A stretch of 64,000 nucleotides of DNA from Escherichia coli (GCF_024298765.1 NZ_CP101210.1); one strand, 5' to 3'. Positions 7,003 to 30,869 are shown, counted from the stretch's first letter. Translations and numbers: made by a program. Notes: generated by a model from the sequence alone, not told the origin.

Positions 7003-8397
7003 TCAAAAAAAGTATTTGAAACGTAATCGGGCACCGTAACGATCATCGGTAATGTCACAATTACTATATCTACAGTTACTATCCAGAATTGAGTAATAAG
7101 CCCCGAGGTAAATATTAAAGTTCTCCATATCCATCACATTAGCAAACTGATAAGATGCATGAATGGTGTGAATGTTGTATATTCCTTCACCATCAATCCA
7201 GCAACCATTATTACACACGACACCACTAAATTCATCAATCTTATTATGTGCGTAGATATAACCCAGTTCGAAACGTTTCCACAGAGCATTAATACTGGCA
7301 GTGAAATCTTTCTCATTACTGGCATCCAAATAGGCGGTATTAAGAGTAACCACGATGCCATTTTCCGGATCTGTTTTCAGACCGTTCCATGTCATGCTAA
7401 TACCATAACCGGAACGATTGGACTGATCGACAAAATTCCCCTTATTATCGGTATAGCCATAAGCATTTTTTACCACGTTCGCTTCCATCGCTGCGGAGAC
7501 TGTGAATTCTTCCGTTGGCGACCAGGCAATTACCGGGCGCAGATAAGCGACATTTTTCTGCTGCTCCATATATCGTCCATGATAATTACCGTTATTATAT
7601 AAAGATGTTCCGTCTTCAAGTAACGTGTTTAACTCAAAATACCAGTTATCGAGTTGTTTACTGATGAGGAAATTACCACCAGCGTCAGAACGACCGCGTC
7701 CCTCTTTCATCATATAGATATAACCACGGCCATCAGCATAAATATCATTAGCTGTATTACCGGAATACTCAATGAAAGTATCCTGATTTAGAGGGAACAT
7801 ATCGTAAGCTTCAAAACGACCGACTTTCACTTTCCACTCGTCATCTTTTCCAAAAAAGAATAATGCATCATCAATATTCACTGAACCGTGCATATCCGCC
7901 AGTGGTTGTGCTGAAAATCCAGCGAAATAACCATTATCAAGCTTACGGGTACCGTCAAAACCTAATAGAATACGGCCATTAAGGTCCCACCGTTCATTCA
8001 CTGACTCACTGTTCGCCCCGGAACTTATCATTACTAACTGACCGGGTTTACTGGCAGCATCTATATTAAACTCCACATCACCATAAAACTTCAAATCATT
8101 GTAACCAGAGAGCAGAAAACCTGGAGAAGATGTTTTTTCTTTTGTTGACTCAACTACTGCATAGCTGTTAGCATCTTTTTTATTCTGCTCTGAACTAATT
8201 TGACGTATTTCAGAATGTTGTTCTATATCAAAACTCTTTAACATTCTTTCTGCTTTTTCCGCCCTTTTTTCTGCAGCTTCCAGGCGTTCTTCCAGCAATG
8301 CCATTCTTTGTTCAAGCGTTAGCCCCCCTGTTTTTGCTGCACACGCATTGTATTCCAGTAATAAAAAAAGAGATAAACCCAAAAGTAACTTATTCAT
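7003..8397 (-). CDS. rafY: Outer-membrane glycoporin, RafY-like (raffinose porin)
   Basis: 464-aa ORF with signal peptide, coiled-coil N-terminal extension, C-terminal ...RFKYFF; sits downstream of rafD as in the plasmid raf operon; AT-rich relative to rafABD. Confidence 0.6.
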   Translation of the reverse strand: MNKLLLGLSLFLLLEYNACAAKTGGLTLEQRMALLEERLEAAEKRAEKAERMLKSFDIEQHSEIRQISSEQNKKDANSYAVVESTKEKTSSPGFLLSGYNDLKFYGDVEFNIDAASKPGQLVMISSGANSESVNERWDLNGRILLGFDGTRKLDNGYFAGFSAQPLADMHGSVNIDDALFFFGKDDEWKVKVGRFEAYDMFPLNQDTFIEYSGNTANDIYADGRGYIYMMKEGRGRSDAGGNFLISKQLDNWYFELNTLLEDGTSLYNNGNYHGRYMEQQKNVAYLRPVIAWSPTEEFTVSAAMEANVVKNAYGYTDNKGNFVDQSNRSGYGISMTWNGLKTDPENGIVVTLNTAYLDASNEKDFTASINALWKRFELGYIYAHNKIDEFSGVVCNNGCWIDGEGIYNIHTIHASYQFANVMDMENFNIYLGAYYSILDSNCRYSNCDITDDRYGARLRFKYFF

Positions 8398-8591
8398 TTT
8401 ACCCCCTTAAATAAAAACAAATGTGGGTACTCTTATATTCTCTGTATCAACACAAAATACCATTCATATTCTTCACCAGACTGGTATATATAATCGCAAC
8501 ACATTACCAAAAGCACACAGCAAAGATAATTAATGTGTACTGGCAAAGTAATGACAGATAATGTCAGAAAAAATACTGATATCGATATGTC

Positions 8592-10022
8592 TCAGGTCAG
8601 CATCCATAAAGTGCCATCAGTTAATATCGCATCGCCATGAGCGGCATATAACGATAATTGTCTCGAGTCCGCTTGCGGATAAATACGACTTGATAAGGTT
8701 GCCTCACCATCGTTAACAAACACTTCAACAGATGAACGATCCAAGAAAATACGAAGAGTCAGATATTCTGTATCAGGAAGTTCAACACTGCGGTAACCAT
8801 CCAACCCTTCCTCAGGGTAATAGCGCCACAGTACCAGTCGCCCGGCCTGATTATCCACATAAAGTCGCAGACCGTCTCCAAGGCGGACGCCATAGTGCTC
8901 CGCATGACTGTCAACCGTATGCCACGTCACCAATAATTCTGCGGCCTGTACATTTTCGGTCAGTAATTGCAAACCCTGTAACCTTACAGGGGATAATGGC
9001 TGGCATTTTTTGCGCAGAGATTCGACTTCACGCACAGGTCGCTGGCACAGCCGGCCATCGCGCTCAAAAACCTCTCTGGGCAGCGTCAGACATCCTGCCC
9101 AGGCTTCACTGCGGGTGGGCACGGGTGAATCCCACATATTCATCCATGCCATAATGATACGCCTGCCGTCCTCAGCCAGCATGGACTGTGGAGCATAAAA
9201 GTCATGACCATAATCCAGCTCTTCAAATCCCCCTTTCAGCGCAAAGACAGAACCAGGCTTCCAGCTCCCTGCCAACACACCGCTCTGAAAAAGGTTACGG
9301 AACCGATAACCGGAAGGGGGCATCCCCTGTGGTGAGAACATCAGCCAGTGAAAATTACCACACCTGAAGAAATCGGGGCATTCCCACATATAACTTTTTC
9401 CGGCTGCGGAATGAGCAAGAACATGCTCCAGATGCCAGTCCCGCAAAGATGTCCCGCGATACAACAGAACTTGCCCATTGTCAGAAGCGTCCCGGGCACC
9501 AATGACCATCCACCAGGAGCCGTCTTCGTGCCAGACTTTGGGATCACGGAAATGCATTATACCTTCCGGAGGTGTCAGCACACAGCCCTGCTTCTCAAAG
9601 TGAATACCATCATGACTTGTAGCCAGACACTGTACTTCACGGATAATGCTGTCATTACCACGATCATCGAGACAAATATGACCAGTATAAATAAGTGATA
9701 GCACGCCATCATCATCCACGGCACTCCCTGAAAAACAGCCATCACGATCATATTTATCTCCGGGTGCCAGCGCGATAGGTTCGTGTTGCCAGTGCAACAT
9801 GTCGGTACTGGTGGCATGCCCCCAGTGCATTGGCCCCTGATATGCGCTTGCAGGATGATGCTGGAAGAACGCATGGTAACGCCCATTGAAGTAAATAAGG
9901 CCATTTGGATCATTCATCCAGCCGGCAGGTGGAGCCAGATGAAAAATCGGGTACCAGGCATTACCACGACGTGCGCAAAGTTTTTCAAGGGCAGACTGTG
10001 CCAAAGCAAGACGCTGTTTCAT
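8592..10022 (-). CDS. rafD: Raffinose invertase / sucrose hydrolase (GH32 beta-fructofuranosidase)
   Basis: 476-aa ORF with GH32 motifs WMNDPNGL, FRDP and ECP; start overlaps the rafB stop (TGATG). Confidence 0.85.
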   Translation of the reverse strand: MKQRLALAQSALEKLCARRGNAWYPIFHLAPPAGWMNDPNGLIYFNGRYHAFFQHHPASAYQGPMHWGHATSTDMLHWQHEPIALAPGDKYDRDGCFSGSAVDDDGVLSLIYTGHICLDDRGNDSIIREVQCLATSHDGIHFEKQGCVLTPPEGIMHFRDPKVWHEDGSWWMVIGARDASDNGQVLLYRGTSLRDWHLEHVLAHSAAGKSYMWECPDFFRCGNFHWLMFSPQGMPPSGYRFRNLFQSGVLAGSWKPGSVFALKGGFEELDYGHDFYAPQSMLAEDGRRIIMAWMNMWDSPVPTRSEAWAGCLTLPREVFERDGRLCQRPVREVESLRKKCQPLSPVRLQGLQLLTENVQAAELLVTWHTVDSHAEHYGVRLGDGLRLYVDNQAGRLVLWRYYPEEGLDGYRSVELPDTEYLTLRIFLDRSSVEVFVNDGEATLSSRIYPQADSRQLSLYAAHGDAILTDGTLWMLT

Positions 10023-11299
10023 CAGTTAATCTCCGAATGCGCTGCAGGGGCTTTTTCTACAGAAGGGTGTACGCTCCCGCGGGAAGAACTCAGCGTGAAA
10101 ACTGATATCACGGTAACAGTCAGAGCAATCATCCCGAGCACAAAATACGTATTCTGGAATCCCATACGATCATACAGGTGGCCGGCAAAGGTAGAGAGAA
10201 GTATTGCAGCAAGTTGTTTGGAAAACTGAAAACCTATTAAATAAACGGTCGCTGACAGTCGGGTGTCAAACACTGCCGTAATATATTTGAACGCCCCAAC
10301 CAGCAAAAATGGAACTTCAAGAGCGTGAAGCATTTTCAGAATCACCACTTCTGTCGCGGTGGTGGCAAAAGCAGAACCGGTAATGCGGATGGTCATAATT
10401 CCCCCCGCAACAAGCAGGGTATTTTTGGCACCAATGCGATGAATTATCCATGGTGTACAGAACATGATAATGGCATTACAAATCTCCCCCGCAGTGGTAG
10501 CAAATCCGAATGCTTTTATTCCTGCCTGAGGAGTGTCAAAGAATGAACGAAAAAATGTGGCAAACTGCTGATCAAATACATCATAGACACAGGCCACACC
10601 AATCGTGTAGAGAACAAACATCCACATCTGACGCATGCGAAACAGGCTGAAGACCATTCTGGTCGAAATCAGGGAAGAATTGGCACCCAGTGTATTCATA
10701 ACCATTGCCGTCTGGCTGGTACTGGGGCGCGCCAGAAACAACAGAAGAAGCAACAATAATGCGCTTCCTGACCCCATCCAGAAAACCAGAGAAGGATCGA
10801 CATTAAAAAGCATTCCAGCCATAGCCGCACATAACGCCCAGCCCAGACACCCGAACATCCTCGCTTTACCGTATTCAAATCCACGACTGCGACTGACCCG
10901 CTCTATATAAGCTTCAATAGCTCCGGCACCTGCAGAAAACACAAAACCAATAAAGACACCGCCAGTCAGTGCGCCTGCCCAGATATTGAAGCGCAGCAGG
11001 GGCGCAAATACATATAAAAAAAAGGGGGCGAAAAATACAAGTAACAGGCTGATACTCCAGATCAGGTTTTTTTTCAGTCCCAGGCGATCTGATATGACCC
11101 CAAGCAATGGCTGGAAACTGATGGCAAACAGAGAAAGACATGAAAAGACTATACCTGTATCCGTTTTACTCAGTCCGACCACATCGGACAGCCATACAGG
11201 CAAAAACGGAAAACAGGTTGCCATGATGAAAAAGTAGAGAAAGAAGAACAGACCGAAAATCCAGAAATCGGGATTTTTATGCGTACTTGCAGAATTCAT
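10022..11299 (-). CDS. rafB: Raffinose permease (LacY-family oligosaccharide:H+ symporter)
   Basis: Strong resemblance to LacY along the whole length (NPDFWIFGLFFFLYFFIM…, MFGCLGWALCA…); start set at MNSASTHKNPDFW (425 aa). Confidence 0.85.
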   Translation of the reverse strand: MNSASTHKNPDFWIFGLFFFLYFFIMATCFPFLPVWLSDVVGLSKTDTGIVFSCLSLFAISFQPLLGVISDRLGLKKNLIWSISLLLVFFAPFFLYVFAPLLRFNIWAGALTGGVFIGFVFSAGAGAIEAYIERVSRSRGFEYGKARMFGCLGWALCAAMAGMLFNVDPSLVFWMGSGSALLLLLLLFLARPSTSQTAMVMNTLGANSSLISTRMVFSLFRMRQMWMFVLYTIGVACVYDVFDQQFATFFRSFFDTPQAGIKAFGFATTAGEICNAIIMFCTPWIIHRIGAKNTLLVAGGIMTIRITGSAFATTATEVVILKMLHALEVPFLLVGAFKYITAVFDTRLSATVYLIGFQFSKQLAAILLSTFAGHLYDRMGFQNTYFVLGMIALTVTVISVFTLSSSRGSVHPSVEKAPAAHSEIN

Positions 11300-11361
11300 T
11301 ATTCTTACCCTCACGGGATAATATTGAGAAACAGGACGGAGCTGAGGCTCCGTACCTCTCT

Positions 11362-13488
11362 TCACACAGCTCTTTCAAGTGCTATCAAAATCGCACTCTC
11401 CGGATCCAGTACGGGGAGCTGAATCCCTCCCTGTGCCAGCCATTCACCACTGGCCTCAAGGCTCTGATTCATCCAGACAGGTAATTTGCGCATGGTATGA
11501 CCGCCTTCACCAACCACCTGGAGGTCCGGGTGATCAATAACCCGAAGCCGGTAACGCACTTCCGCCGCCAGACCGGGAAAACGAAGTATGCCTGGTAAGG
11601 TGTAATCCGGCATTGCAAGCTGGCTGATCATAAAAAGTGCCTGAGACTGATCAGGGCTGACGACTCCCTGAACCTGTATCGAAGGATCTGGCATATCCAC
11701 ACGCCAGAGAACTCCTGTATGAATCAGTTGTCGCCATTCTTTATAGAGCAAGGCATACCGGCGATAACCGTCAGATTCCTTCGCATCTGCGGCCACCGGA
11801 TCCAGCTCCAGCCCCATATGGCCGAACAATGCCGTCAGCCCACGAAAAGCGATGCTGTGCTGCCGGAAAGTTGCATGGCAGCGGCGATGGCCAATATGCG
11901 CCCCCATCACCTCAGGAGGGAAAAAGTAACTCATGCCACGTTGTATGGTGCAGCGCTCCAGGGCATCATTATTGTCAGATGCCCAGAACCGGTGTGTGCG
12001 TTTCAGGACTTCGAAGTCAATACGCCCCCCACCGGAAGCACAGGACTCAAACTCAACATGTGGAAAACGTTCACGGAGGAGATCAAGCAATCGATAGAAC
12101 TGACGGGTCTGTGCATCTGCTGCCGCACGGCCTTCATGCCCTGCCTGTACAAGCTCACGATTCATGTCCCATTTCACATAATCAACCGGATGTTCTCCCA
12201 GTAACCATAAGAAACGTTCATAAATGTAAGCAAAGGCCTCTGGAATATTCAGGTTAAGAACATACTGATATCTTCCGGTTGGCTGGGAATATCCAGGCAT
12301 TGACAATACCCAGTCAGGATGAAGACGAAACAGGTCAGAATCCGGGTTAATCATTTCCGGCTCAACCCATATGCCAAATTCCATACCGAGAGATTTCACA
12401 TGTTTAATAACCGGCATCAGCCCGTTCGGGTATTTCTGTTCATCGGTATACCAGTCGCCCAGAGCCGCGCGGTCATCGTTACGTCCTTTAAACCAGCCAT
12501 CATCAATAATGAAACGTTCAACGCCCAGTGCTGCTGCACGCTCAGCCATCTGCATGATGTAATCAGGATTGTGATTGAAATAAATACCTTCCCAGGTATT
12601 GAGATGTACAGGGCGGGGTTTTTGCTCAGGGAAACGGATAATTTCATCACGCAAAAAACGATGGTATTGCTGACTCATTCCATTCAGGCCATCCGCAGAG
12701 TGGCAGGCATATAGCCACGGGGTGTACAGGGTTTCATTCTTCCTGAGAGCCTTCTCACCCGGCATCCACAGAGCCTCAGCCTGAACGTAACGCCTGCCGT
12801 CAGTTTTTGCCTCACATCTCATGCGGTGATTTCCACTCCACCCCAGATGCACAGCCCACACCTCTCCCTGTTGTTCCGAGAAGCCTGGCGTGCCGACAAT
12901 CAGCGCCGGAAAATGCTCATGAGATGTCCGCCCTCTGCGATTTTCCAGAACAAAAGCATCATGAGTGAGACGTACCCTGTGCGGCTGAAATTCACGAGTC
13001 CAGCGTCCGTGAAAAGCCATGACTTCTTCCGCACGTTCCGCTAAAGGTAAAGTGATGGCGAAACGATTTATCTGCCAGTCCCCCTCTCTGAGGTTGGTCA
13101 GTGCATGACGAACTTTCAGAATTCCTGATGGCGTCATCACCAGCTCGCTGACCAGACGCAGGCCGGCTACCGAATCTTCACTGGTAAGTCTCAGAGTGTT
13201 TTCGGTATGTTCCACGTCAACTGTATAAAAAACAGGAGATGCATCCAGCCCATTCCTGTGTCCTTCCAGTCCCGGAGAGCTAAAAAGTCCCAGGGCATTT
13301 TCAGCCATCAGTGTTAGTGGCGTATCAATATCCAGACGACCATTCGCAACCGGTCTTTCCAGGCTGGCACAGTCATCCGGTGAGAAATGTTTCAGTGCAG
13401 AGCCCCACCAGATAATTTCTGCATGTGGACGGGTTTTAATAATTAAATCAGAGCGAGGACTGCTCAGTCTGCAGTACTTTGAAACCAT
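11362..13488 (-). CDS. rafA: Alpha-galactosidase (GH36)
   Basis: 708-aa ORF; GH36-like; position between rafR and rafB. Confidence 0.85.
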   Translation of the reverse strand: MVSKYCRLSSPRSDLIIKTRPHAEIIWWGSALKHFSPDDCASLERPVANGRLDIDTPLTLMAENALGLFSSPGLEGHRNGLDASPVFYTVDVEHTENTLRLTSEDSVAGLRLVSELVMTPSGILKVRHALTNLREGDWQINRFAITLPLAERAEEVMAFHGRWTREFQPHRVRLTHDAFVLENRRGRTSHEHFPALIVGTPGFSEQQGEVWAVHLGWSGNHRMRCEAKTDGRRYVQAEALWMPGEKALRKNETLYTPWLYACHSADGLNGMSQQYHRFLRDEIIRFPEQKPRPVHLNTWEGIYFNHNPDYIMQMAERAAALGVERFIIDDGWFKGRNDDRAALGDWYTDEQKYPNGLMPVIKHVKSLGMEFGIWVEPEMINPDSDLFRLHPDWVLSMPGYSQPTGRYQYVLNLNIPEAFAYIYERFLWLLGEHPVDYVKWDMNRELVQAGHEGRAAADAQTRQFYRLLDLLRERFPHVEFESCASGGGRIDFEVLKRTHRFWASDNNDALERCTIQRGMSYFFPPEVMGAHIGHRRCHATFRQHSIAFRGLTALFGHMGLELDPVAADAKESDGYRRYALLYKEWRQLIHTGVLWRVDMPDPSIQVQGVVSPDQSQALFMISQLAMPDYTLPGILRFPGLAAEVRYRLRVIDHPDLQVVGEGGHTMRKLPVWMNQSLEASGEWLAQGGIQLPVLDPESAILIALERAV

Positions 13489-13526
13489 AAGACATTCTCC
13501 TTTCTCAGGGATGCCTTACTGTTGAT

Positions 13527-13561
13527 CCGAAACGTTTCGGGTATCAACCAAAACGTTTCGG
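13527..13561 (-). promoter_or_regulatory. Two palindromic operator-like sites (CCGAAACGTTTCGG at 13527..13540 and CCAAAACGTTTCGG at 13548..13561) in the rafA promoter region; candidate RafR operators
   Basis: Perfect and near-perfect 14-bp palindromes 21 bp apart centre to centre, 40–73 bp upstream of the rafA start, adjacent to the LacI-family repressor gene. Confidence 0.55.
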
Positions 13562-13583
13562 ATATGTGAGCTGGATAAAAAAA

Positions 13584-14594
13584 TCAGGAGCAAGGAGGAT
13601 GAATCGTCTTTCCCGGATAAAATACCGGGTTCCAGACAACCTGTAGTGGTTTTGATGATGAATCAGTAATTATCTGATATATCATCTCGGAAATCTGGCG
13701 ACCAACGAGGCTTCGTGTTGACTGAATAACTGCAGCCACATCCAGCTCAATAATACTGTCCTGTGGCAAACCATCATATACAACCAGAGATACCGCATCT
13801 TTTCCTGAAAGACGACCGCTCAACTGCAGTGCCATGGCAGCACCATCTCCACTCAGGTCATTGTCAGTAATAATAGCTGTTGGTGGTATCGGTAGTGACA
13901 TTAACTCCATCACGGCCTGATATCCTGCTCGCCGTGTGGGAGAAACCAGCCGCAGCCATGTATCTTCCAGTTCATGCTCATTCAGTGCATCAAGCCATCC
14001 CTGACGTCTTGCAACAACATAGCTATGTGAAGTGTCTTCACTCAACAATGCAATACGTTTATGTCCCAAAGCAATCAGTTTCTGGGTTGCCTGTCCAGTC
14101 CCGGCATGATTATCAAAGTCAAACCACGCACAGGGCAGACCAGATGGTACCCGACCAAGAGCCAGAAATGGAATACCTGCTTTATGAAGGTGTGTGATAC
14201 GGGGATCGTCATCCAGAGTGTGTGCAATGATGAGAGCATCAACCCTGCGACTTTCAACAAGCCGCATATAGCTGTGGCAATCGGCATGCTCATCATCAGC
14301 TATCAGTAGTAAGTCAATATCATGGTGAGCAAGTTCCCGGCTGATGCAACTGACCATATCCATAAAAACACCACTGTTAAATGGCACATCACGTCCAGGA
14401 TAAACCAGACCGACAGCATCGGTTTTACCGGTTTTGAGTCTTCTTGCCTGAGTATTAGGACGGTAACCGCGTCGACGAGCTTCAGCTTCCACCCGTGCAC
14501 GGGTGGAAGCTGACACATCTGCATAGCCTCCAAGAGCCCGACTGACAGTGGTGACAGAAACTCCGAGTGCAGTGGCAATCGCCTTAAGTGACAT
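13584..14594 (-). CDS. rafR: LacI-family transcriptional repressor of the raf operon
   Basis: 336-aa ORF; N-terminal HTH (LKAIATALGVSVTTVSRAL); periplasmic-binding-protein-like sugar-binding core. Confidence 0.8.
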   Translation of the reverse strand: MSLKAIATALGVSVTTVSRALGGYADVSASTRARVEAEARRRGYRPNTQARRLKTGKTDAVGLVYPGRDVPFNSGVFMDMVSCISRELAHHDIDLLLIADDEHADCHSYMRLVESRRVDALIIAHTLDDDPRITHLHKAGIPFLALGRVPSGLPCAWFDFDNHAGTGQATQKLIALGHKRIALLSEDTSHSYVVARRQGWLDALNEHELEDTWLRLVSPTRRAGYQAVMELMSLPIPPTAIITDNDLSGDGAAMALQLSGRLSGKDAVSLVVYDGLPQDSIIELDVAAVIQSTRSLVGRQISEMIYQIITDSSSKPLQVVWNPVFYPGKTIHPPCS

Positions 14595-14617
14595 ATTATC
14601 TCCTGCTAATTATTATA

Positions 14618-14660
14618 GTAGACCGTCCCCCTAAATCTCCAGACAACCAATATCACTTAT
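14618..14660 (+). mobile_element. IS2 left-end remnant (~42 bp, about 38/42 identical to the IS2 left IR as recalled), 24 bp upstream of the rafR start
   Basis: TAGACCGTCCCCCTAAATCTCCAGACAACCAATATCACTTAT versus recalled TAGACTGGCCCCCTGAATCTCCAGACAACCAATATCACTTAA. Confidence 0.5.
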
Positions 14661-14676
14661 TGTAAGTTAACGGAAT

Positions 14677-14701
14677 CCCTCTGATCTGTAAGATCAGAGG
14701 G
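14677..14701. other. Perfect hairpin/palindrome CCCTCTGATC-TGTAA-GATCAGAGGG downstream of the integrase stop
   Basis: 10-bp perfect stem, 5-nt loop; no flanking U-tract on either strand. Confidence 0.5.
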
Positions 14702-14743
14702 AAAGGTTATTGATTGTGAGAATAATTTCAGGACAAAGTGTAA

Positions 14744-15928
14744 TTAACTCTCCTGGATGGAAAGTGAATCAATGTAGTCAGCGTACCATTGCATCATTTC
14801 ACGGCGACCATCGAGATACAGGGCATGATTATAGGTACCCCTGATGGAATTTTTATCCACATGAGCTAACTGCATTTCAATCCAGGCAGAATTAAAGCCC
14901 TGTTCGTGCAGAATGGTACTCATGGTGTGACGAAAACCATGACCGGTTGCCCTGCCATCGTAACCGATACGTTTGAGCACCATATTGATGCTGGCTTCGC
15001 TCATTGGCTTGTTGATATCACAACGTCCCGGGAAAACCAGCCGGTATTGTCCGGAGAAAGTTTTGAGCTGCAGCAGAATGTCAGTGGCCTGTCGTGACAG
15101 TGGTACGACATGTTTACGTCGCATTTTCATGCGGCTTTCAGGGATTGTCCACAGGGCATTATCAAAATCAATTTCTGACCATTCAGCGGACCGTAGTTCA
15201 ATCGTTCTGAGGCCTGTCAGAAGCAGCAGATTTGTCGCCATGCGGGTAACAGGACTGCCATGATATTCAGCGAGCTTCCGGAGAAAAACAGGGAGCTCAT
15301 CTGCTCTCAGGTGGGGGAAATGTGCAGCTTTTGGCGCCGCCAGCGTACTGGTCAGTTCAGATGCCGGATTGACAGTGGCTCGTCCGGTGGCGATGGCATA
15401 ACGAAAAATCTGATTACAGTATTGACGCACCTTACGAAGTTTTTCCAGCGAGCCACGTTTTTCTATGCGGCGCAGAATTTCCAGCATTTCCAGCGGGAGG
15501 ATATCAGTAACGCTTCGTTTGCCCAGATACGGGAAAATATCTTTATCCAGAGCCTCCAGTACGCTTCTGGCGTAACTTTCAGACCATGACAAAGATTTAT
15601 GCTGATGCCATTCCGTAGCAAGGGCATGGAACGTATTGGTGGCAGAGATTTTCTGAGTGAGTTTTTCCTTTCGCTTCTTTTCGCCCGGGTCGCCACCTTC
15701 GGAGATAATTTTTCGGGCATCGTCGCGTTTGATTCTGGCTTCAGCAAGGGAGACGTCGGGATAGACGCCGAGGGCCAGTTTTTTCTCTTTTCCTGCTATC
15801 CGGTATTTAAGCCGCCAGTAGCGGGCACCCGTGGTTTTTACCAGCAGATATAAACCACGTTCGTCAGAGAGTTTATAGTCTTTTTCTTTAGGTCTGGCTG
15901 TTTCGACCTGTCTGGCTGTAAGTGCCAT
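14744..15928 (-). CDS. int: Tyrosine recombinase, P4-type phage/island integrase
   Basis: N-terminal MALTARQVETARPKEKDYKLSD…GLYLLV typical of P4-family integrases; C-terminal catalytic region; immediately adjacent to tRNA-Phe; ORF track start at 15958 probably too early. Confidence 0.85.
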   Translation of the reverse strand: MALTARQVETARPKEKDYKLSDERGLYLLVKTTGARYWRLKYRIAGKEKKLALGVYPDVSLAEARIKRDDARKIISEGGDPGEKKRKEKLTQKISATNTFHALATEWHQHKSLSWSESYARSVLEALDKDIFPYLGKRSVTDILPLEMLEILRRIEKRGSLEKLRKVRQYCNQIFRYAIATGRATVNPASELTSTLAAPKAAHFPHLRADELPVFLRKLAEYHGSPVTRMATNLLLLTGLRTIELRSAEWSEIDFDNALWTIPESRMKMRRKHVVPLSRQATDILLQLKTFSGQYRLVFPGRCDINKPMSEASINMVLKRIGYDGRATGHGFRHTMSTILHEQGFNSAWIEMQLAHVDKNSIRGTYNHALYLDGRREMMQWYADYIDSLSIQES

Positions 15929-16000
15929 ATGGGGGCTCCTGAAACTGACTGAACACAATGAGCCCCCACCGGTGCCCCCAATGAACGCTTGATTGAGAGA

Positions 16001-16085
16001 GAGTTCAGTAGAGTTCGGTGGAGTTCAGGATGTTCAGATTGCTTGTAACGATGTGATTATACTTGAGTTTCGTGGAGTTCGGGAG
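16001..16085. repeat. Cluster of GAGTTC(A/G)G direct repeats between integrase and tRNA (candidate arm-type recombinase binding sites)
   Basis: Three tandem 10-bp-spaced copies at 16001, 16011, 16021, plus variants at ~16032, 16065, 16075. Confidence 0.35.
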
Positions 16086-16104
16086 ATGAATCTGGAAGTG
16101 AAAG

Positions 16105-16180
16105 TGGTGCCCGGACTCGGAATCGAACCAAGGACACGGGGATTTTCAATCCCCTGCTCTACCGACTGAGCTATCCGGGC
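16105..16180 (-). tRNA. pheV: tRNA-Phe (anticodon GAA)
   Basis: Reverse complement reads GCCCGGATAGCTCAGTCGGTAGAGCAGGGGATTGAAAATCCCCGTGTCCTTGGTTCGATTCCGAGTCCGGGCACCA, 76 nt with CCA end; pheV assignment from flanking yqgA/speC. Confidence 0.95.
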
Positions 16181-16285
16181 AACGGGGCGCATTAAACCTG
16201 ATTCGCCTCGTCTCGTCAATCAAATTTCTTCAATTTACTGCAGACTGCACAATCTATCATCACTTTGCCGCTATTGCACGCATTG

Positions 16286-16993
16286 TCAGGCAAACCAGGC
16301 GGTCCAGGCGGCGGAAAGCGGCATTGCCAGAAGGAGTGCTGGAAGCATGTTGACCACCGGGAACATTTTAATGCCACAGATGCGTAATCCGGTTGCCAGC
16401 AGCAATAAACCGCCTACGGCGCTGAAGTCTGCCATCATCGACGGTGTGGTCAGCGGTAATATCAGCGCGGCAGCCCACGCCAGCGTTAACTGGATGATCA
16501 GTAATGGGATACTAATTACCGACACCGCAATACCCAACGAGCAGGCGAAGATCATCGCCGTAAAGAAATCGAGAAATGACTTGGCGATTAAAATACTCGG
16601 ATCGCCGGTCATCCCTTCGTTCATCGCCCCGAAGATCCCGGTGCCGCTGGCGCAAAACAGGACAATAATCGCGACATAATTCTGAATAAAAGATTCATGC
16701 GCTGGCTTCTTACGTGAGTGGCGAAACAGATTTTGTGCTTTGGTGACCGCGGTATTGACGCCTTTTTCCAGCAGACAAATTTCGCCGATTAATGCACCGA
16801 GTAAGGTTGCTAAAACCATCGCCGGAAGGTTGGCGCATTTCACCACCAGTAAAATACCAATCCCCAGCGATGCCAGACCAAAAATAGATGTCATGGAGAC
16901 GCGGATACGTTCCGGTAAACGTTGGCTGAGCAGTGCGCCGAGAACGCCACCCAGTAAGACTGCACTAGCGTTGATAAAAGGGCCGATGACCAC
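16286..16993 (-). CDS. yqgA: Putative transporter YqgA (DUF554 family inner-membrane protein)
   Basis: 235-aa multi-TM ORF recognised as YqgA; synteny next to pheV and speC. Confidence 0.8.
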   Translation of the reverse strand: MVIGPFINASAVLLGGVLGALLSQRLPERIRVSMTSIFGLASLGIGILLVVKCANLPAMVLATLLGALIGEICLLEKGVNTAVTKAQNLFRHSRKKPAHESFIQNYVAIIVLFCASGTGIFGAMNEGMTGDPSILIAKSFLDFFTAMIFACSLGIAVSVISIPLLIIQLTLAWAAALILPLTTPSMMADFSAVGGLLLLATGLRICGIKMFPVVNMLPALLLAMPLSAAWTAWFA

Positions 16994-17384
16994 AAGAGTT
17001 CCTGTTAACTGTATTGTCTGATTTTCTTATTATGAACTTTTTGCCTTGTTGATGGCTTGTCTGGTCGCAAAGTCCTGGCTTGCACGCTTTAGCGAAAGGT
17101 GCCATGATTGCGCGAATTTTCTCCTCTCTGTACGGAGTTTGCCCGATGCACGCCACCTCCTTACATTCTCTCGCTTATCGCCGTTTCGCGCGAAACTCCT
17201 CCCCTTTTCTGCTCATGCGGTGAAGTTAACGCACGCTCACTGCAGGACAACAGTAAAATCAGAGCGTTTCTGCTTTTACTGATGTCTGGCGGTCGGAGCT
17301 GGTGACCAGTTTGACCCATATCTCATGGGGCAGGGTTTTCCACCTTGTCCGGTATTCTTACTTCCCCGAAACGGGTTTGCGCTT

Positions 17385-19520
17385 ATGAAATCAATGAATA
17401 TTGCCGCCAGTAGTGAACTGGTATCCCGACTTTCTACTCATCGCCGCGTGGTGGCGTTGGGAGATACTGATTTTACGGACGTCGCGGCAGTCGTCATTAC
17501 CGCTGCGGATAGCCGCAGTGGCATTCTTGCGTTGCTTAAGCGCACCGGTTTTCATCTACCGGTGTTTTTGTATTCCGAACATGTTGTTGAATTACCTGCG
17601 GGCGTTACGGCGGTAATCAACGGCAACGAGCAGCAGTGGCTGGAGCTGGAATCCGCAGCCTGTCAGTATGAAGAGAATTTGCTGCCACCGTTTTATGACA
17701 CGCTGACGCAGTACGTTGAGATGGGCAACAGCACTTTTGCTTGCCCTGGGCATCAACATGGTGCGTTCTTTAAAAAGCATCCTGCCGGACGCCATTTTTA
17801 CGATTTCTTTGGTGAGAACGTCTTTCGCGCCGATATGTGTAACGCTGACGTAAAATTGGGCGATCTGCTTATTCATGAAGGATCGGCGAAAGATGCGCAG
17901 AAATTCGCAGCCAAAGTCTTTCATGCCGATAAAACCTATTTTGTGCTGAACGGCACATCGGCAGCGAATAAAGTAGTGACGAATGCGCTGTTAACGCGTG
18001 GCGATCTGGTGCTCTTCGACCGTAACAACCATAAGTCGAATCATCACGGCGCGCTGATTCAGGCGGGGGCGACGCCGGTCTATCTGGAAGCTTCACGTAA
18101 CCCGTTTGGTTTCATTGGCGGTATTGATGCGCACTGTTTTAATGAAGAGTATCTGCGCCAGCAAATTCGCGACGTTGCGCCAGAAAAAGCGGAGTTGCCG
18201 CGCCCGTTTCGCCTGGCGATTATTCAGCTGGGAACCTATGACGGCACTGTCTATAACGCCCGTCAGGTGGTCGATACCGTTGGGCATCTGTGTGATTACA
18301 TTCTGTTTGATTCCGCGTGGGTCGGTTACGAACAGTTTATCCCGATGATGGCGGATAGCTCGCCGCTGCTGTTAGAACTTAACGAAAACGATCCGGGGAT
18401 CTTTGTGACTCAGTCGGTGCACAAACAGCAGGCGGGATTCTCACAGACGTCGCAGATCCATAAAAAAGATAACCATATTCGCGGACAGGCGCGTTTTTGC
18501 CCGCATAAGCGGTTGAATAATGCCTTTATGCTCCATGCTTCTACCAGCCCGTTCTATCCGCTGTTTGCTGCACTGGACGTTAACGCCAAAATTCATGAAG
18601 GGGAGAGTGGGCGTCGGCTGTGGGCGGAGTGCGTTGAGATAGGGATTGAAGCGCGCAAGGCGATTCTTGCGCGCTGTAAGCTGTTCCGCCCGTTTATCCC
18701 GCCCGTTGTTGATGGCAAATTGTGGCAGGATTATCCGACATCAGTGTTAGCCAGCGACCGCCGTTTTTTCAGTTTTGAGCCGGGGGCGAAGTGGCACGGC
18801 TTTGAAGGATATGCCGCGGATCAGTATTTTGTTGATCCGTGCAAGCTGTTACTCACTACACCTGGTATCAATGCCGAAACTGGCGAATATAGCGACTTTG
18901 GCGTTCCGGCGACGATTCTGGCGCACTATCTGCGTGAGAACGGCATTGTGCCGGAGAAGTGCGATCTCAATTCCATTCTGTTCTTATTAACGCCGGCGGA
19001 AAGCCACGAGAAGCTGGCGCAACTGGTGGCGATGCTGGCGCAGTTTGAACAGCATATTGAGGATGACTCACCGCTGGCTGAGGTGTTGCCGAGCGTTTAT
19101 AACAAATATCCGGTGCGCTATCGCGACTACACCCTGCGCCAGTTGTGTCAGGAGATGCACGATCTGTATGTCAGTTTCGACGTCAAAGACCTACAAAAAG
19201 CGATGTTCCGCCAGCAGAGTTTCCCGTCAGTGGTGATGAACCCCCAGGATGCACATAGTGCTTATATTCGCGGTGAAGTGGAGTTGGTGCGGATTCGTGA
19301 TGCCGAAGGGCGAATTGCGGCAGAAGGGGCGTTGCCTTATCCACCAGGCGTGCTTTGCGTGGTACCCGGAGAAGTCTGGGGTGGGGCGGTTCAGCGTTAT
19401 TTCCTTGCGCTGGAAGAAGGGGTGAATTTATTGCCGGGATTTTCGCCGGAGCTGCAAGGTGTCTATAGCGAAACCGATGCGGATGGCATGAAACGATTGT
19501 ACGGTTATGTGTTGAAGTAA
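17385..19520 (+). CDS. speC: Ornithine decarboxylase, constitutive
   Basis: Recognised SpeC sequence; start set at MKSMNIAASSELVSR (711 aa) rather than ORF-track 17325. Confidence 0.9.
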   Translation: MKSMNIAASSELVSRLSTHRRVVALGDTDFTDVAAVVITAADSRSGILALLKRTGFHLPVFLYSEHVVELPAGVTAVINGNEQQWLELESAACQYEENLLPPFYDTLTQYVEMGNSTFACPGHQHGAFFKKHPAGRHFYDFFGENVFRADMCNADVKLGDLLIHEGSAKDAQKFAAKVFHADKTYFVLNGTSAANKVVTNALLTRGDLVLFDRNNHKSNHHGALIQAGATPVYLEASRNPFGFIGGIDAHCFNEEYLRQQIRDVAPEKAELPRPFRLAIIQLGTYDGTVYNARQVVDTVGHLCDYILFDSAWVGYEQFIPMMADSSPLLLELNENDPGIFVTQSVHKQQAGFSQTSQIHKKDNHIRGQARFCPHKRLNNAFMLHASTSPFYPLFAALDVNAKIHEGESGRRLWAECVEIGIEARKAILARCKLFRPFIPPVVDGKLWQDYPTSVLASDRRFFSFEPGAKWHGFEGYAADQYFVDPCKLLLTTPGINAETGEYSDFGVPATILAHYLRENGIVPEKCDLNSILFLLTPAESHEKLAQLVAMLAQFEQHIEDDSPLAEVLPSVYNKYPVRYRDYTLRQLCQEMHDLYVSFDVKDLQKAMFRQQSFPSVVMNPQDAHSAYIRGEVELVRIRDAEGRIAAEGALPYPPGVLCVVPGEVWGGAVQRYFLALEEGVNLLPGFSPELQGVYSETDADGMKRLYGYVLK

Positions 19521-27996: not shown

Positions 27997-28034
27997 GCCG
28001 GATAATATAAAAAGTTATCCGGCAAATTATTTTT
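27997..28034. terminator. Hairpin plus T-run between convergent yggM and TRAP permease gene
   Basis: GCCGGATAA-tataaaaag-TTATCCGGC then AAATTATTTTTT. Confidence 0.5.
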
Positions 28035-29335
28035 TACATTAGCCCTAGTAGCTGTGGAATGAACAAGGATATTTGCGGGATGTAAGTGATCATCATCAAC
28101 GCGATTAACAATGCGGCATAAAATGGCAGCAATGGTTTGATCAAATGTTGAATCTTCACACCTGAAATAGAACAACCAACAAATAGCGCACTACCCACCG
28201 GCGGTGTTAACAGCCCAATACAAAGGTTAGCCACCATCATAATACCGAAATGTACCGGATCCATTCCCAGCTCTTGTGCAATCGGCAAGAAGATTGGTGT
28301 GAAGATTAGTACAGCCGGTGTCATGTCCATAAAGATGCCGACAATTAATAAGACGATATTAATCAGCAGCAATATGATCAGTGGGTTATCAGAAATCCCC
28401 ATCAATGCGTCGCTGATCATATAAGGAATATCAGCATTGGTCATTGCCCAGGACATGCCCACGGAAAAACCGATCAACAGTAATACAATCGAAGTGGTAA
28501 CAACCGATTCCAGAATCAGTTTGGGTAAATCGCGCCATTTTACTTCCCGGTAAATCAGCACCGAGAGAATAAATGTGTAGACAACGGCAATTGCTGACGC
28601 TTCAGTTGCGGTAAAAATGCCGCCCAGAATGCCGCCCATTACAATGAACACCAGAAGCAAACTTGGTAAGGCATCCAGAAAAGCTTTACATGCCTGAGCA
28701 AAGGTTGCTCTTTCTGAAAGTGGGTAGCCACGGCGTTTAGCAATAATGCCGCAGACTATCATTACCGCGAGACCCATTAAGATCCCTGGCAAATATCCCG
28801 CCATAAATAACGATGCTACAGAAACGCCGCCAGCTGTCAGGGAAAACACAATTAACACGTTTGAGGGCGGTATCAGTAATCCAGTAATACAAGATGAGAC
28901 GTTTACAGCGGTAGAAAATGCCGGATCATAACCTTCTTTGGTCTGAATGGGATTCAGTGTGCCACCAACGGCAGCAGCTGCCGCAACGGCTGAACCAGAA
29001 ATGGAACCAAACATCATATTCGCCAGGACGTTCACATGACCAAGCGAACCAGGAACGCGGCCAACCATTACCTGGGCGAGGTTAATCAAACGTATCGCAA
29101 TACCGCCGCTGTTCATCAGTGTTCCGGCAAAGATGAAAAAGGGGATTGCCAACAGGGCAAAGTTATCCAGTCCATTAGCCAATCGTTGCGAAACAGTGAT
29201 TGCCGCGATATCCCAGGGAAACATCAACAGCATTGAAGCTACAGTCGCAATAGCGATTGAGAACGAAATGGGCACACCAATAAAGACCAGCACAAAAAAA
29301 CAGTCAAACAGTGTAATCGCGATATAACTATCCAT
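28034..29335 (-). CDS. TRAP transporter large permease subunit (DctM family)
   Basis: 433-aa polytopic membrane protein with DctM-like organisation; stop of upstream gene shares nucleotide 29335. Confidence 0.8.
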   Translation of the reverse strand: MDSYIAITLFDCFFVLVFIGVPISFSIAIATVASMLLMFPWDIAAITVSQRLANGLDNFALLAIPFFIFAGTLMNSGGIAIRLINLAQVMVGRVPGSLGHVNVLANMMFGSISGSAVAAAAAVGGTLNPIQTKEGYDPAFSTAVNVSSCITGLLIPPSNVLIVFSLTAGGVSVASLFMAGYLPGILMGLAVMIVCGIIAKRRGYPLSERATFAQACKAFLDALPSLLLVFIVMGGILGGIFTATEASAIAVVYTFILSVLIYREVKWRDLPKLILESVVTTSIVLLLIGFSVGMSWAMTNADIPYMISDALMGISDNPLIILLLINIVLLIVGIFMDMTPAVLIFTPIFLPIAQELGMDPVHFGIMMVANLCIGLLTPPVGSALFVGCSISGVKIQHLIKPLLPFYAALLIALMMITYIPQISLFIPQLLGLM

Positions 29336-29847
29336 TAACTGGCCTCCTGCGCAGGTTGTTTCAGTTGTTGAATGCTTTGATTAATAAAACACAAGGCATA
29401 AAACATCATCACCACTCCACTTAATGGCAGAATGATATATACGTATCCCATCGGTATTTGCATTGCGGCAGATACCTGTGATGTTGCCAGTGTTTTATCA
29501 ATTAATTTCAGGCCACCAGTCACAATGACCGAACCGGCAAAACCTAAAATAAGAACGTTAATGACTATACTAAGAAGTAATTGCTTGCGCTTATTCAGGG
29601 CGAGAGCAAATAAATCGATAGAGAGATGTCTCTGCGCGCCGACGGTATATGCAGCACCTAATAATCCTACCCAGATCATCAAAAAGCGTGCCAGCTCATC
29701 GGTTAATGTACTTGGCTGGTTAAGTACGTAGCGGCTAAATACTTGCCAGACTACGCATACAACCAGAGCAAGCATTACGGCGACAGAAAACGCGGCAATG
29801 ACGCGGTCTACCGCAAGTTTCAGGCGGTTAAATATCATTGTAAGCAT
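29335..29847 (-). CDS. TRAP transporter small permease subunit (DctQ family)
   Basis: 170-aa protein with four hydrophobic helices, placed between SBP and large permease genes. Confidence 0.7.
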   Translation of the reverse strand: MLTMIFNRLKLAVDRVIAAFSVAVMLALVVCVVWQVFSRYVLNQPSTLTDELARFLMIWVGLLGAAYTVGAQRHLSIDLFALALNKRKQLLLSIVINVLILGFAGSVIVTGGLKLIDKTLATSQVSAAMQIPMGYVYIILPLSGVVMMFYALCFINQSIQQLKQPAQEAS

Positions 29848-29882
29848 CCTGGAAAATCAGGGCCAGAGACTGGCCCGAAATA

Positions 29883-30869
29883 TTATTGAGCAGCGTTGTC
29901 GAATTTCTCTAACAAAGCAGCTTGTTTTGGATCTTTTTTGAAGTCGTCAAACAGAGGTTGAACTGCGGCACGGAATGGGGCTTTATCAACCTTAACGATT
30001 TCACCACCCATAGCTTTCGCCTGAGCACGTGTGTCAGCGTCAATTTTTTCCCACAATTTTTGTTGATAAGCTTCGGATTTCTTCGCCGCTGTTTCGAGGA
30101 TTTGTTGCTGTTCTGGGGTTAATTTATTCCATGTTTTGGTGGAGATAACCAAAAAGTCAGGAATTGAGGCATGTTCATCTTCAGAAAAGACTTTGGCAAT
30201 TTCGATATGTCGAGTCTGCACCCAGGAAGGCACGTTATTTTCTGCGCCATCTACTACACCTTGTTGCATCGCAGTATAAACTTCGCCAAATGAAATTGGA
30301 GTGGGTGAGCCACCCATCAGTTCAATCATTTTGATGGTGGTCGGGCTTGGCTGAACACGAATTTTCAGCCCTTTAAGATCTTCTGGCTTAGTAATCGGTT
30401 TTTTCGCATAGAAACTGCGAGTACCCGCTACATAAGCTGATAAAGCAAAAAAGCCTTTATCTTTTGTTGAATCCATAATTTCTTTACCAACTTCACCAAA
30501 AACCACTTTGTTGAAGTGCGCCTGATCTTTAAATAAGAACGGCAAATTATAGATAGCATAAATATTATCAAAAGACTCCAGATCACTGGCGGAACCTTTG
30601 GTCATATCCAGTGCACCATTTTGCAACAACTCCATAGTTTCTCGCGCATTACCCATCTGGCTGCTGGGGTAAATACGGATCACCATATTACCTTTTGACA
30701 GCTGTTTTACTTCTTTCGCCAGCTCTTCAAAACTCTGATGTACAACATGACTTCTTTCCAGGTTGTGTGCTAACTTTAACGTCACTTTTTCTGCGGCGTT
30801 TACGCCAGTGCTAACCAGAGCCAGCAAGGATGCGCAGACTAATGAGCGGGTAAATGACCTCATTTTCAT
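29883..30869 (-). CDS. TRAP transporter substrate-binding protein (DctP family)
   Basis: 328-aa ORF with signal peptide; DctP-like size and features; first gene of dctPQM-like operon. Confidence 0.8.
   Translation of the reverse strand: MKMRSFTRSLVCASLLALVSTGVNAAEKVTLKLAHNLERSHVVHQSFEELAKEVKQLSKGNMVIRIYPSSQMGNARETMELLQNGALDMTKGSASDLESFDNIYAIYNLPFLFKDQAHFNKVVFGEVGKEIMDSTKDKGFFALSAYVAGTRSFYAKKPITKPEDLKGLKIRVQPSPTTIKMIELMGGSPTPISFGEVYTAMQQGVVDGAENNVPSWVQTRHIEIAKVFSEDEHASIPDFLVISTKTWNKLTPEQQQILETAAKKSEAYQQKLWEKIDADTRAQAKAMGGEIVKVDKAPFRAAVQPLFDDFKKDPKQAALLEKFDNAAQ

Follow-up and report, generated by a model that had tools for sequence, protein, structure and literature searches.

Positions 14744 to 16180 of the window, as we call the whole 64-kb stretch of Escherichia coli DNA analyzed here, very likely represent the junction (attL) at the tRNA end of a large genomic island inserted at the pheV locus, together with the island's own integrase gene. 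The identity of the feature and the position of the island boundary are almost certain; the interval runs exactly from the stop codon of a P4-type integrase gene to the 5' end of an intact tRNA-Phe gene. Islands that occupy tRNA-Phe genes and encode P4-family integrases are textbook examples of acquired DNA, and the island type described here is already known, ordinary in its arrangement, and not rare. The int region is present at 80% coverage or more in 526 of 5,426 genomes (megablast), and the first 16.3 kb of the window recur at approximately 100% identity in 202 of the 5,426 complete E. coli genomes. Taking up about 16.1 kb of the window and, as judged from relatives, about 72 kb of the genome, this pheV island carries genes for raffinose utilization and candidate phage-defense genes, with a type I restriction-modification system further out; delimiting such acquired DNA is useful for annotation and for the reading of traits in chicken-associated E. 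coli.

The tRNA-Phe(GAA) gene is the sole tRNA gene found by ARAGORN in the 64-kb window, no other Rfam family reaches its gathering score in positions 1–17500, and in alignment the 76 nt of the gene are identical to those of K-12 pheV. Because yqgA and speC lie on the other side of the tRNA in the K-12 arrangement, the locus is pheV and not pheU. A preliminary description of this DNA had proposed that the integrase beside tRNA-Phe marks the boundary of an island and had suggested a comparison with strains in which pheV is empty, and that comparison bears the proposal out: the match of the window to K-12 runs through the tRNA, its CCA end and the following CT, and stops there, with complete divergence right after the attL core (alignment with the empty site). 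In the K-12 empty site, pheV is followed directly by a terminator and yghD, with no island genes between pheV and yghD; in the window, foreign DNA lies between pheV and the yghD side and an integrase gene lies immediately 3' of pheV, the arrangement that defines GI-pheV. The whole of positions 1 to 16104 is island DNA of accessory character, as had also been described, and comprises a raf-like operon (rafR-A-B-D-Y) directly after the integrase, IS1 and IS3 fragments, and a poorly characterized cassette (Table 1). A literature search on raffinose together with pheV and integrase found no paper.

Table 1. Features of the island end and of the adjoining core genome, in window coordinates.
Feature	Position	Strand	Basis
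PDC-M09A-like protein, C-terminal part	1-616	+	PADLOC, NCBIfam
PDC-M40B-like protein, 523 aa	663-2234	+	PADLOC, NCBIfam
Phosphoethanolamine transferase homologue	2887-4560	+	
TPR protein	4704-5738	-	
IS1 and IS3 fragments	5788-6425		ORF list, RefSeq of strain 104
rafY	7003-8397	-	ORF list, RefSeq of strain 104
rafD	8592-10022	-	ORF list, RefSeq of strain 104
rafB	10022-11299	-	ORF list, RefSeq of strain 104
rafA	11362-13488	-	ORF list, RefSeq of strain 104
rafR	13584-14594	-	ORF list, RefSeq of strain 104
Integrase, 394 aa, P4-family tyrosine recombinase (SMS-3-5 type), WP_001218742.1	14744-15928	-	Pfam, RefSeq
Inverted arm-type repeat TGGGGGCTC, abutting the integrase ATG	15928-15938	+	repeat search
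P' arm: tandem pair of arm-type repeats, TGGGGGCAC and TGGGGGCTC, at a spacing of 12 nt	15959-15982	-	repeat search
Spacer between core and arms: three copies of a ~20-nt GAACTC-containing repeat	16001-16084	-	repeat search (family D1)
attL core: 19 nt at the tRNA 3' end (ATTCCGAGTCCGGGCACCA) and the following CT	16103-16123	-	recurs at the island's far end
pheV, tRNA-Phe(GAA), intact	16105-16180	-	ARAGORN; Rfam RF00005, 68.3 bits
yqgA, first core gene on the 5' side of the tRNA	16286-16993	-	K-12 comparison, RefSeq of strain 104

Judged by its domains, its identity to P4 Int, its catalytic residues, and the arm repeats next to its gene, the integrase is truly of the P4 type, as first described. 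Three Pfam domains cover the protein (PF13356 Arm-DNA-bind_3 at residues 3–88, PF22022 Phage_int_M at 100–193, and PF00589 Phage_integrase at 207–370, the last with E=7.7e-26), and in the PDB its sequence matches entries for N-terminal and central domains from CP4-like and CPS-53 integrases. The NCBIfam model PRK09692 scores 309 bits, below its curated cut-off of 434. Alignment with the Int of phage P4 (NC_001609) extends over the full length of the protein (42% identity, 405 aligned positions, E=1e-107) and identifies the candidate catalytic residues R241, K272 (or K268), H330, R333, H356, and Y366, of which K272 or K268 is the beta-hairpin lysine and H330 and R333 belong to the HxxR motif; the protein thus carries the complete tyrosine recombinase signature (R...K...HxxR...H/W...Y). 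The three domains, the full-length homology to P4 Int, and the co-directional position of int at the 3' end of a tRNA gene are the features of P4-type (DUF4102/CP4-57-like) integrases, and the arm-repeat layout is likewise that of P4.

The integrase ORF spans 14744–15958 (minus strand), and the RefSeq start is the ATG at 15928, which is preceded 8 nt upstream by AGGAG and corresponds in alignments to residue 1 in the CFT073 integrase and to residue 5 in P4 Int as annotated. A TTG start at 15958 was considered and rejected, because the ATG at 15928 has both a Shine-Dalgarno sequence and the agreement of RefSeq. The gene lies on the same strand as the tRNA and 176 nt downstream of its 3' end, and so is transcribed away from it; homologues in Enterobacterales are 394–405 aa long and align at 99–100% query coverage, from which it follows that the ORF is full length. 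Both points agree with the preliminary description.

The attachment-site sequence between the integrase gene and the tRNA is laid out as in phage P4. The tandem repeats of the P' arm contain TGGGGGC heptamers at 15974–15980 and 15962–15968 (minus strand), and the inverted repeat at the integrase start contains another at 15930–15936 (plus strand), with 9–10 nt that are 90–100% complementary to the tandem pair. The heptamer occurs 10 times on both strands of the 64-kb window, and three of these copies fall within 51 bp near the start of the integrase. The inverted repeat at the integrase ATG is probably an autoregulatory Int site. The GAACTC repeats of the spacer are partly conserved in a relative from Lelliottia and are candidates for sites of an accessory protein or for additional Int sites. 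Both tandem repeats have invariant G-runs in an alignment of the window's att region with P4 attP and the corresponding regions of four relatives, one at tRNA-Phe (Lelliottia), one at tRNA-Asn (Salmonella), and two at tRNA-Arg (Pectobacterium and Yersinia).

In P4 itself the annotated attP arm repeats read TTGGGGGCAYNN, and a tandem pair lies on each side of the core, with an inverted copy at 3915–3926 over the int start. A second arm pair, CATGGGGGCCTCATTGGTGGCCTC, is found in relatives of the window's island 56 nt inside the far repeat, and its P4 counterpart is 53 nt from the core. Since arm pairs are present at both ends of the island, both P4-style attP arms have been preserved and are split between the ends, the P' arm being seen in the window and the P arm in the far ends of relatives, outside the window.

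The extent of the island can be read from close relatives. Strain 104, isolated from chicken (NZ_CP029164.1), matches the window at 99.988% over 50 kb, with 2 mismatches and one 4-nt gap, and its island measures 71,986 bp, from the 3' end of pheV (1766308) to TTTCATTCCGAGTCCGGGCACCA at 1694299–1694321. This far repeat lies 55,883 bp to the left of window position 1 and is followed by the K-12 pheV terminator and yghD. In both strain 104 and CUVET17-972 the repeat beside yghD consists of a perfect copy of the 19 nt ATTCCGAGTCCGGGCACCA plus CT, and in CUVET17-972 the same island ends enclose 70,010 bp. A second copy of the tRNA 3' end is absent from the window, with up to 3 mismatches in 23 nt allowed, and within the strain 104 island the same search (up to 3 mismatches) found the attL and far repeats only. 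In strain 104, CUVET17-972, and SMS-3-5, whose proximal part is identical to that of the window, the attR repeat of GI-pheV is thus found beside yghD, at a place that lies outside the window. The preliminary description had predicted an island of at least 16 kb continuing past the window edge, with its distal repeat beyond that edge, and had named a search for this repeat as the check; carried out in relatives, the search found it. By extension from these relatives, the window's own strain in all probability has the far repeat beyond the edge as well.

The interior of the island is best called mosaic. The middle cargo of CUVET17-972 differs from that of strain 104 and includes sul2, strAB, tetA, and floR, and in strain 104 a second integrase survives as a remnant 3.8 kb to the left of window position 1 (80% identity to CFT073 Int over its C-terminal 46 aa). 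The IS fragments and this CFT073-like remnant indicate that the island has been rearranged since its integration.

A survey of GI-pheV in E. coli (Nhu et al. 2024, PLoS Genet, PMC11537424) found a P4-type integrase beside pheV to be the sole conserved gene of these islands, and distinguished five closely related alleles (intP4.1 to intP4.5) and attR repeats of 23 or 19 bp. The intP4 of SMS-3-5 was reported there as an outlier, with 46.3% nucleotide conservation with the rest, and the GI-pheV of this strain is catalogued in Table 1 of that paper, with an attR that differs by one base outside the 19-bp core (PMC11537424). With 43% amino acid identity to CFT073 Int, the window integrase falls outside the main intP4.1–intP4.5 group, which is bounded at about 94% nucleotide identity or more. 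An identical integrase protein is encoded at pheV in SMS-3-5, strain 104, and CUVET17-972, and SMS-3-5 shares with the window both WP_001218742.1 and identical RafR, RafA, RafB, RafD, and RafY proteins beside pheV. Its far end is also of the same type, with the 19-bp core, a GGGCC-type arm pair, ParDE, and a yee/CP4-like module. The identical integrase and Raf proteins and the common far-end type identify the island in the window as the catalogued minor type of GI-pheV. The SMS-3-5 island differs in size (91.9 kb, compared with about 72 kb in the window's nearest relative), in its middle cargo (ICE-gene remnants and iha), in its attR, which reads TTTT and not TTTC just outside the core, and in two substitutions in the arm repeats.

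The common intP4.1–intP4.5 islands (CFT073, 536 PAI V, APEC O1, EC958, and OI-122) have the same insertion site, the same position and orientation of int, and the same overall attP-like layout, in which a core and a spacer of about 125 nt lead to a tandem pair of arm repeats and, ahead of the ATG, an inverted repeat; they too have a yee/CP4-like module at the far end. By contrast, their integrase is only 43% identical to the one described here and is 421 rather than 394 aa long, their arm motif is GGGTAYA rather than TGGGGGC, and the far-end repeat in 536, APEC O1, 55989, and REL606 is 23 bp with a 1-nt deletion rather than 19 bp. Phage P4, which integrates at leuX, is similar in its Int (42% identity and the same three-domain architecture), in the GGGGGC tandem pairs that flank the core at near-equal distances, in the inverted copy placed over the start of int, and in having a Vis/AlpA-like gene, which here lies within the island (strain 104). 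P4 differs in its target (tRNA-Leu and not tRNA-Phe) and in its annotated attP core (20 bp, compared with an identity of 19 bp), and the island holds about 72 kb of cargo without the replication or helper-exploitation genes of P4. The she PAI, likened here by description, also occupies pheV and has a P4-like integrase next to the tRNA, although its cargo (sigA, pic, and set) differs from the raf and defense genes of the present island; its Int-dependent excision, stimulated by the AlpA-like factor Rox, has reportedly been shown experimentally and serves as the mechanistic model for the proposal below.

More distant relatives of the integrase occupy other tRNA genes. In Lelliottia, one and the same protein, 81% identical to the window integrase, is encoded at both a pheU-like (cutA-dsbD) and a pheV-like (speC-yqgA) locus, in each case 176 nt from tRNA-Phe, which supports sequence-specific targeting of the tRNA-Phe 3' end. 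Across six relatives, at tRNA-Phe, tRNA-Asn, or tRNA-Arg, int starts 165–177 nt after the tRNA; those at 71% identity or less are found at tRNA-Arg or tRNA-Asn, and only the 81%-identical Lelliottia relative is at tRNA-Phe. After the Yersinia integrases (68% identical) come genes for AlpA, Bro-N/ORF6N, and a P4-alpha-like primase, and the AlpA and primase genes identify these loci as true P4-like satellites. The homologues in Pectobacterium, Yersinia, and Salmonella, together with the ICE remnants of SMS-3-5, had given grounds to consider an ICE. Membership of the SPI-7/YAPI/HAI2 family of ICEs was rejected, because the relatives at 71% identity or less are at tRNA-Arg or tRNA-Asn and two of them, from Yersinia, are P4-like satellites. 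The annotations of the window and of the 72-kb strain 104 island include no genes for a T4SS, a relaxase, or a coupling protein, by which an ICE would be recognized, and those of the strain 104 island include no conjugation or mobilization genes either; the ICE-gene remnants in the SMS-3-5 island are limited to pseudogenized TIGR03756 and TIGR03757.

We propose that the island was acquired as follows. The ancestral attP would have consisted of a 19-bp core matching the 3' end of tRNA-Phe, with tandem TGGGGGC arms on both sides and int beside one of them. The N-terminal domain of the P4-family Int would have bound the arms, its central and catalytic domains would have bound the core, and strand exchange would have taken place within the 19-bp identity; integration would have restored an intact tRNA next to int, with the displaced core copy ending up at the other end of the island, beside yghD. 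Excision would occur at low frequency, probably with the help of a directionality factor of the AlpA/Vis type. A comparison of strain 104 with CUVET17-972 bears on the integration step: the two share at least 6 kb of identical island sequence, counted inward from the far repeat, whereas their gsp/yghD flanks are 4–6% divergent, with the last mismatch 21 bp from the repeat. Identity inside the island next to flank divergence that extends to within 21 bp of its end points to site-specific integration into two backgrounds.

Whether the island can still leave the chromosome is a more delicate matter. We infer that the integrase still works, and excision is plausible given that the integrase, the cores, and both sets of arms look intact; the chances for and against present-day competence nevertheless seem to us about evenly balanced. 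The strain 104 island contains an AlpA-family gene (PF05930, E=2.5e-10; below the cut-off of TIGR01764), whose product is 36% identical to P4 Vis over 47 aa. It lies about 59 kb from int within a CP4-57-like module, and it may belong to another element. A reconstituted attP junction, as expected in an excised circle or a tandem copy, was found neither in the 5,426 complete E. coli genomes (searched with a synthetic 353-bp query) nor in IMG/VR (searched with an exact 40-mer).

To the view that the island is a fixed and immobile remnant, with an Int ORF that is intact but silent or without its cognate directionality factor, we give appreciable though less than even weight. Such a remnant would change only through IS activity, deletion, or homologous recombination, and the heavy IS mosaic of the interior with its second integrase remnant, and a middle cargo that differs between strain 104 and CUVET17-972 despite their identical ends, are in keeping with this, as are the lack of an attP junction in complete genomes and viral contigs, the distant location of the only AlpA-like gene in a CP4-57-like module, and the conclusion of Nhu et al. 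(2024, PMC11537424) that, for the most part, GI-pheV and the core genome evolve together. Against this view stand an integrase that is 100% conserved across divergent backgrounds, with every catalytic residue kept, the perfect 19-bp cores, and two intact arm pairs of matching sequence. The break in identity no more than 21 bp from the far att site further implies at least one fairly recent site-specific integration.

An improbable alternative is that the island has spread on large chromosomal fragments by way of homologous flanks, the integrase being irrelevant to its current distribution. Flank-mediated transfer is said to be documented for other E. coli islands, and on the tRNA side the window equals CUVET17-972 for 432 bp past the tRNA into yqgA, with SNPs beginning at 16537. 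We rejected this identity as a sign of such transfer because the stretch is conserved in all E. coli examined (2–3 differences per 396 nt relative to K-12, CFT073, and REL606), which makes the tRNA-side flank uninformative, whereas the far flank, 4–6% divergent up to 21 bp from the repeat, is what site-specific integration predicts and leaves no homologous flank for recombination. That the element is a P4-like satellite prophage and not a genomic island is most improbable: although 68%-identical Yersinia integrases sit in true P4-like satellites and the arm-site layout copies that of P4, what comes after int here is a raffinose operon with IS fragments and cargo of a metabolic or defense kind, no primase, Sid, Psu, or Delta is annotated in the 72-kb strain 104 island, and an element of 72 kb has six times the length of the P4 genome.

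For a pheV island integrated by its own P4-type integrase, as we read the window, research value is confined to a side observation on the ends of such islands; the remainder adds no new biology. The int/att systems seen at pheV can be divided into class A, that of the common intP4 islands (421-aa Int, GGGTAYA arms, and a 23-bp core), and class B, that of the window (394-aa Int, TGGGGGC arms, and a 19-bp core). The GGGTAYA arm repeats precede int in the common class (CFT073 and REL606), and the far ends with a 23-bp attR (REL606, 536, APEC O1, and 55989) have the arm pair CTGCGGGTACAAAAGAGGGTACA, which matches the GGGTAYA class. In CFT073 the far end, a homologue of that in strain 104, combines a 19-bp attR bearing a G-to-T change with the class B pair CATGGGGGCCTCATTGGTGGCCTC. 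The window-type island has matched class B ends, the far end being known from relatives, whereas the widespread intP4.1 islands of uropathogenic lineages (CFT073 and, to judge from the 19-bp attR, ST131/EC958 as well) appear to be chimeras in which a class A Int and P' arm are joined to a class B far end. A simple tandem accretion of two islands, considered because of the second integrase remnant in strain 104, was rejected, as the far end is of class B and not of class A.

If arm recognition is class-specific, the chimeric islands would be locked by their mismatched ends, and the window-type island would stay excisable. The full proposition, that pheV hosts two non-interchangeable int/att classes and that the intP4.1 islands are chimeras locked in place, is a tentative one and in our estimation somewhat doubtful. 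If true, it would offer a mechanism behind the stable presence of the major pheV islands of UPEC and would explain the dichotomy between 19-bp and 23-bp attR that is reported without explanation in PMC11537424. The word "arm" is absent from that paper (Nhu et al. 2024, PMC11537424) and the two-class observation is not made there, and the apparent presence in CFT073-type pheV islands of a far end cognate to the integrase class of the window may be a new observation. Some 635 further genomes, ST131 among them, hold a far end of the CFT073/strain 104 type at about 90% identity.

The genomes nearest to the window are mostly of poultry origin, and a 2026 GWAS associated rafY, hsdR, radC, a WYL protein, a 'cobalamin adenosyltransferase' and intS with chicken E. 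coli (PMC12987596). Because most genes on that list correspond to the content of this pheV island, both in window positions 7003-14594 and in the island generally, the chicken signal may represent one linked island and not independent genes. The features discussed below are located in the accompanying table.

Features of the pheV island, its relatives and its core flank
Feature	Sequence	Position	Strand or orientation	Remarks
WYL-domain regulator, 359-aa protein and 523-aa protein, in that order	window	1-2234, continuing upstream		strain 104 locus L005, 47796-49901
Phosphoethanolamine-transferase homologue, 557 aa	window	2887-4560	+	island gene
Hairpin, perfect 10-bp stem, CCCTCTGATC-ttaca-GATCAGAGGG	window	14677-14701	-	
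TRAP transporter operon	window	28034-30869		between yggM and hemW
Remnant of a second P4-family integrase	strain 104 locus L005	46231-46415	as pheV integrase	3.8 kb past the left edge of the window
Thymidylate synthase gene, then pyrophosphorylase-annotated gene	strain 104 locus L005	32070-35809		outside window
Plasmid raf module	plasmid pSJ_94 locus L014	3296-11803		counterpart of window 7003-15503 region

The rafR-A-B-D-Y operon is also plasmid-borne, being found at 174 plasmid places with about 98% identity, and there it is accompanied by the 3' 759 bp of the window's own integrase gene, cut by IS2. By sequence comparison the int-raf junction is common to the plasmid-borne and pheV-island modules, and since it is shared, one module was probably derived from the other.

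The pheV-island far ends, as seen in CFT073 (locus L012, ~2200-2405), strain 104 (locus L006, 14300-14410), REL606 (locus L010, ~15370-15470) and loci L021-L023, fall into two classes. The first, which matches the common intP4 integrase, combines a 23-bp attR with GGGTAYA arm repeats; the second, which matches the window's integrase, combines a 19-bp attR with GGGGGCC/GGTGGCC arm repeats. The CFT073-type islands carrying the intP4.1 allele appear to have mismatched ends, because in them the common integrase is joined with a far end of the second class.

Within the island of strain 104, the remnant of a second integrase comprises the C-terminal ~46 aa and is 80% identical to the CFT073 Int; its presence shows that two or more integrative elements have contributed to this mosaic island. 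The same chromosomal island holds predicted phage-style thymidine hypermodification genes: a thymidylate synthase gene and the gene that follows it, with genes for an XRE regulator and a MazG-like protein close by. In the relative CUVET17-972, the gene after thymidylate synthase is annotated 'alpha-glutamyl/putrescinyl thymine pyrophosphorylase clade 3'.

Across the window edge lies what looks like a candidate phage-defence cassette, in which the protein after the WYL-domain regulator matches the PADLOC candidate PDC-M09A (E=3.5e-22) and the next protein in order matches PDC-M40B (E=1.3e-42). The RefSeq name of the latter, 'ATP--cob(I)alamin adenosyltransferase', is probably a misnomer. The putative phosphoethanolamine transferase scores far under the curated cut-off of every NCBIfam model matched, the EptA, CptA and MCR models included (its top score is 163 bits, where the cut-off stands at 500), and should not be taken for a colistin-resistance gene.

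The hairpin, which is followed by no T-run, lies 43 nt past the integrase stop codon, in the interval that separates int from the rafR promoter region. Outside the island, the window and strain 104 both carry the TRAP transporter operon, which CUVET17-972 lacks at the equivalent position; the operon is a small insertion of lineage-specific occurrence within the core flank.
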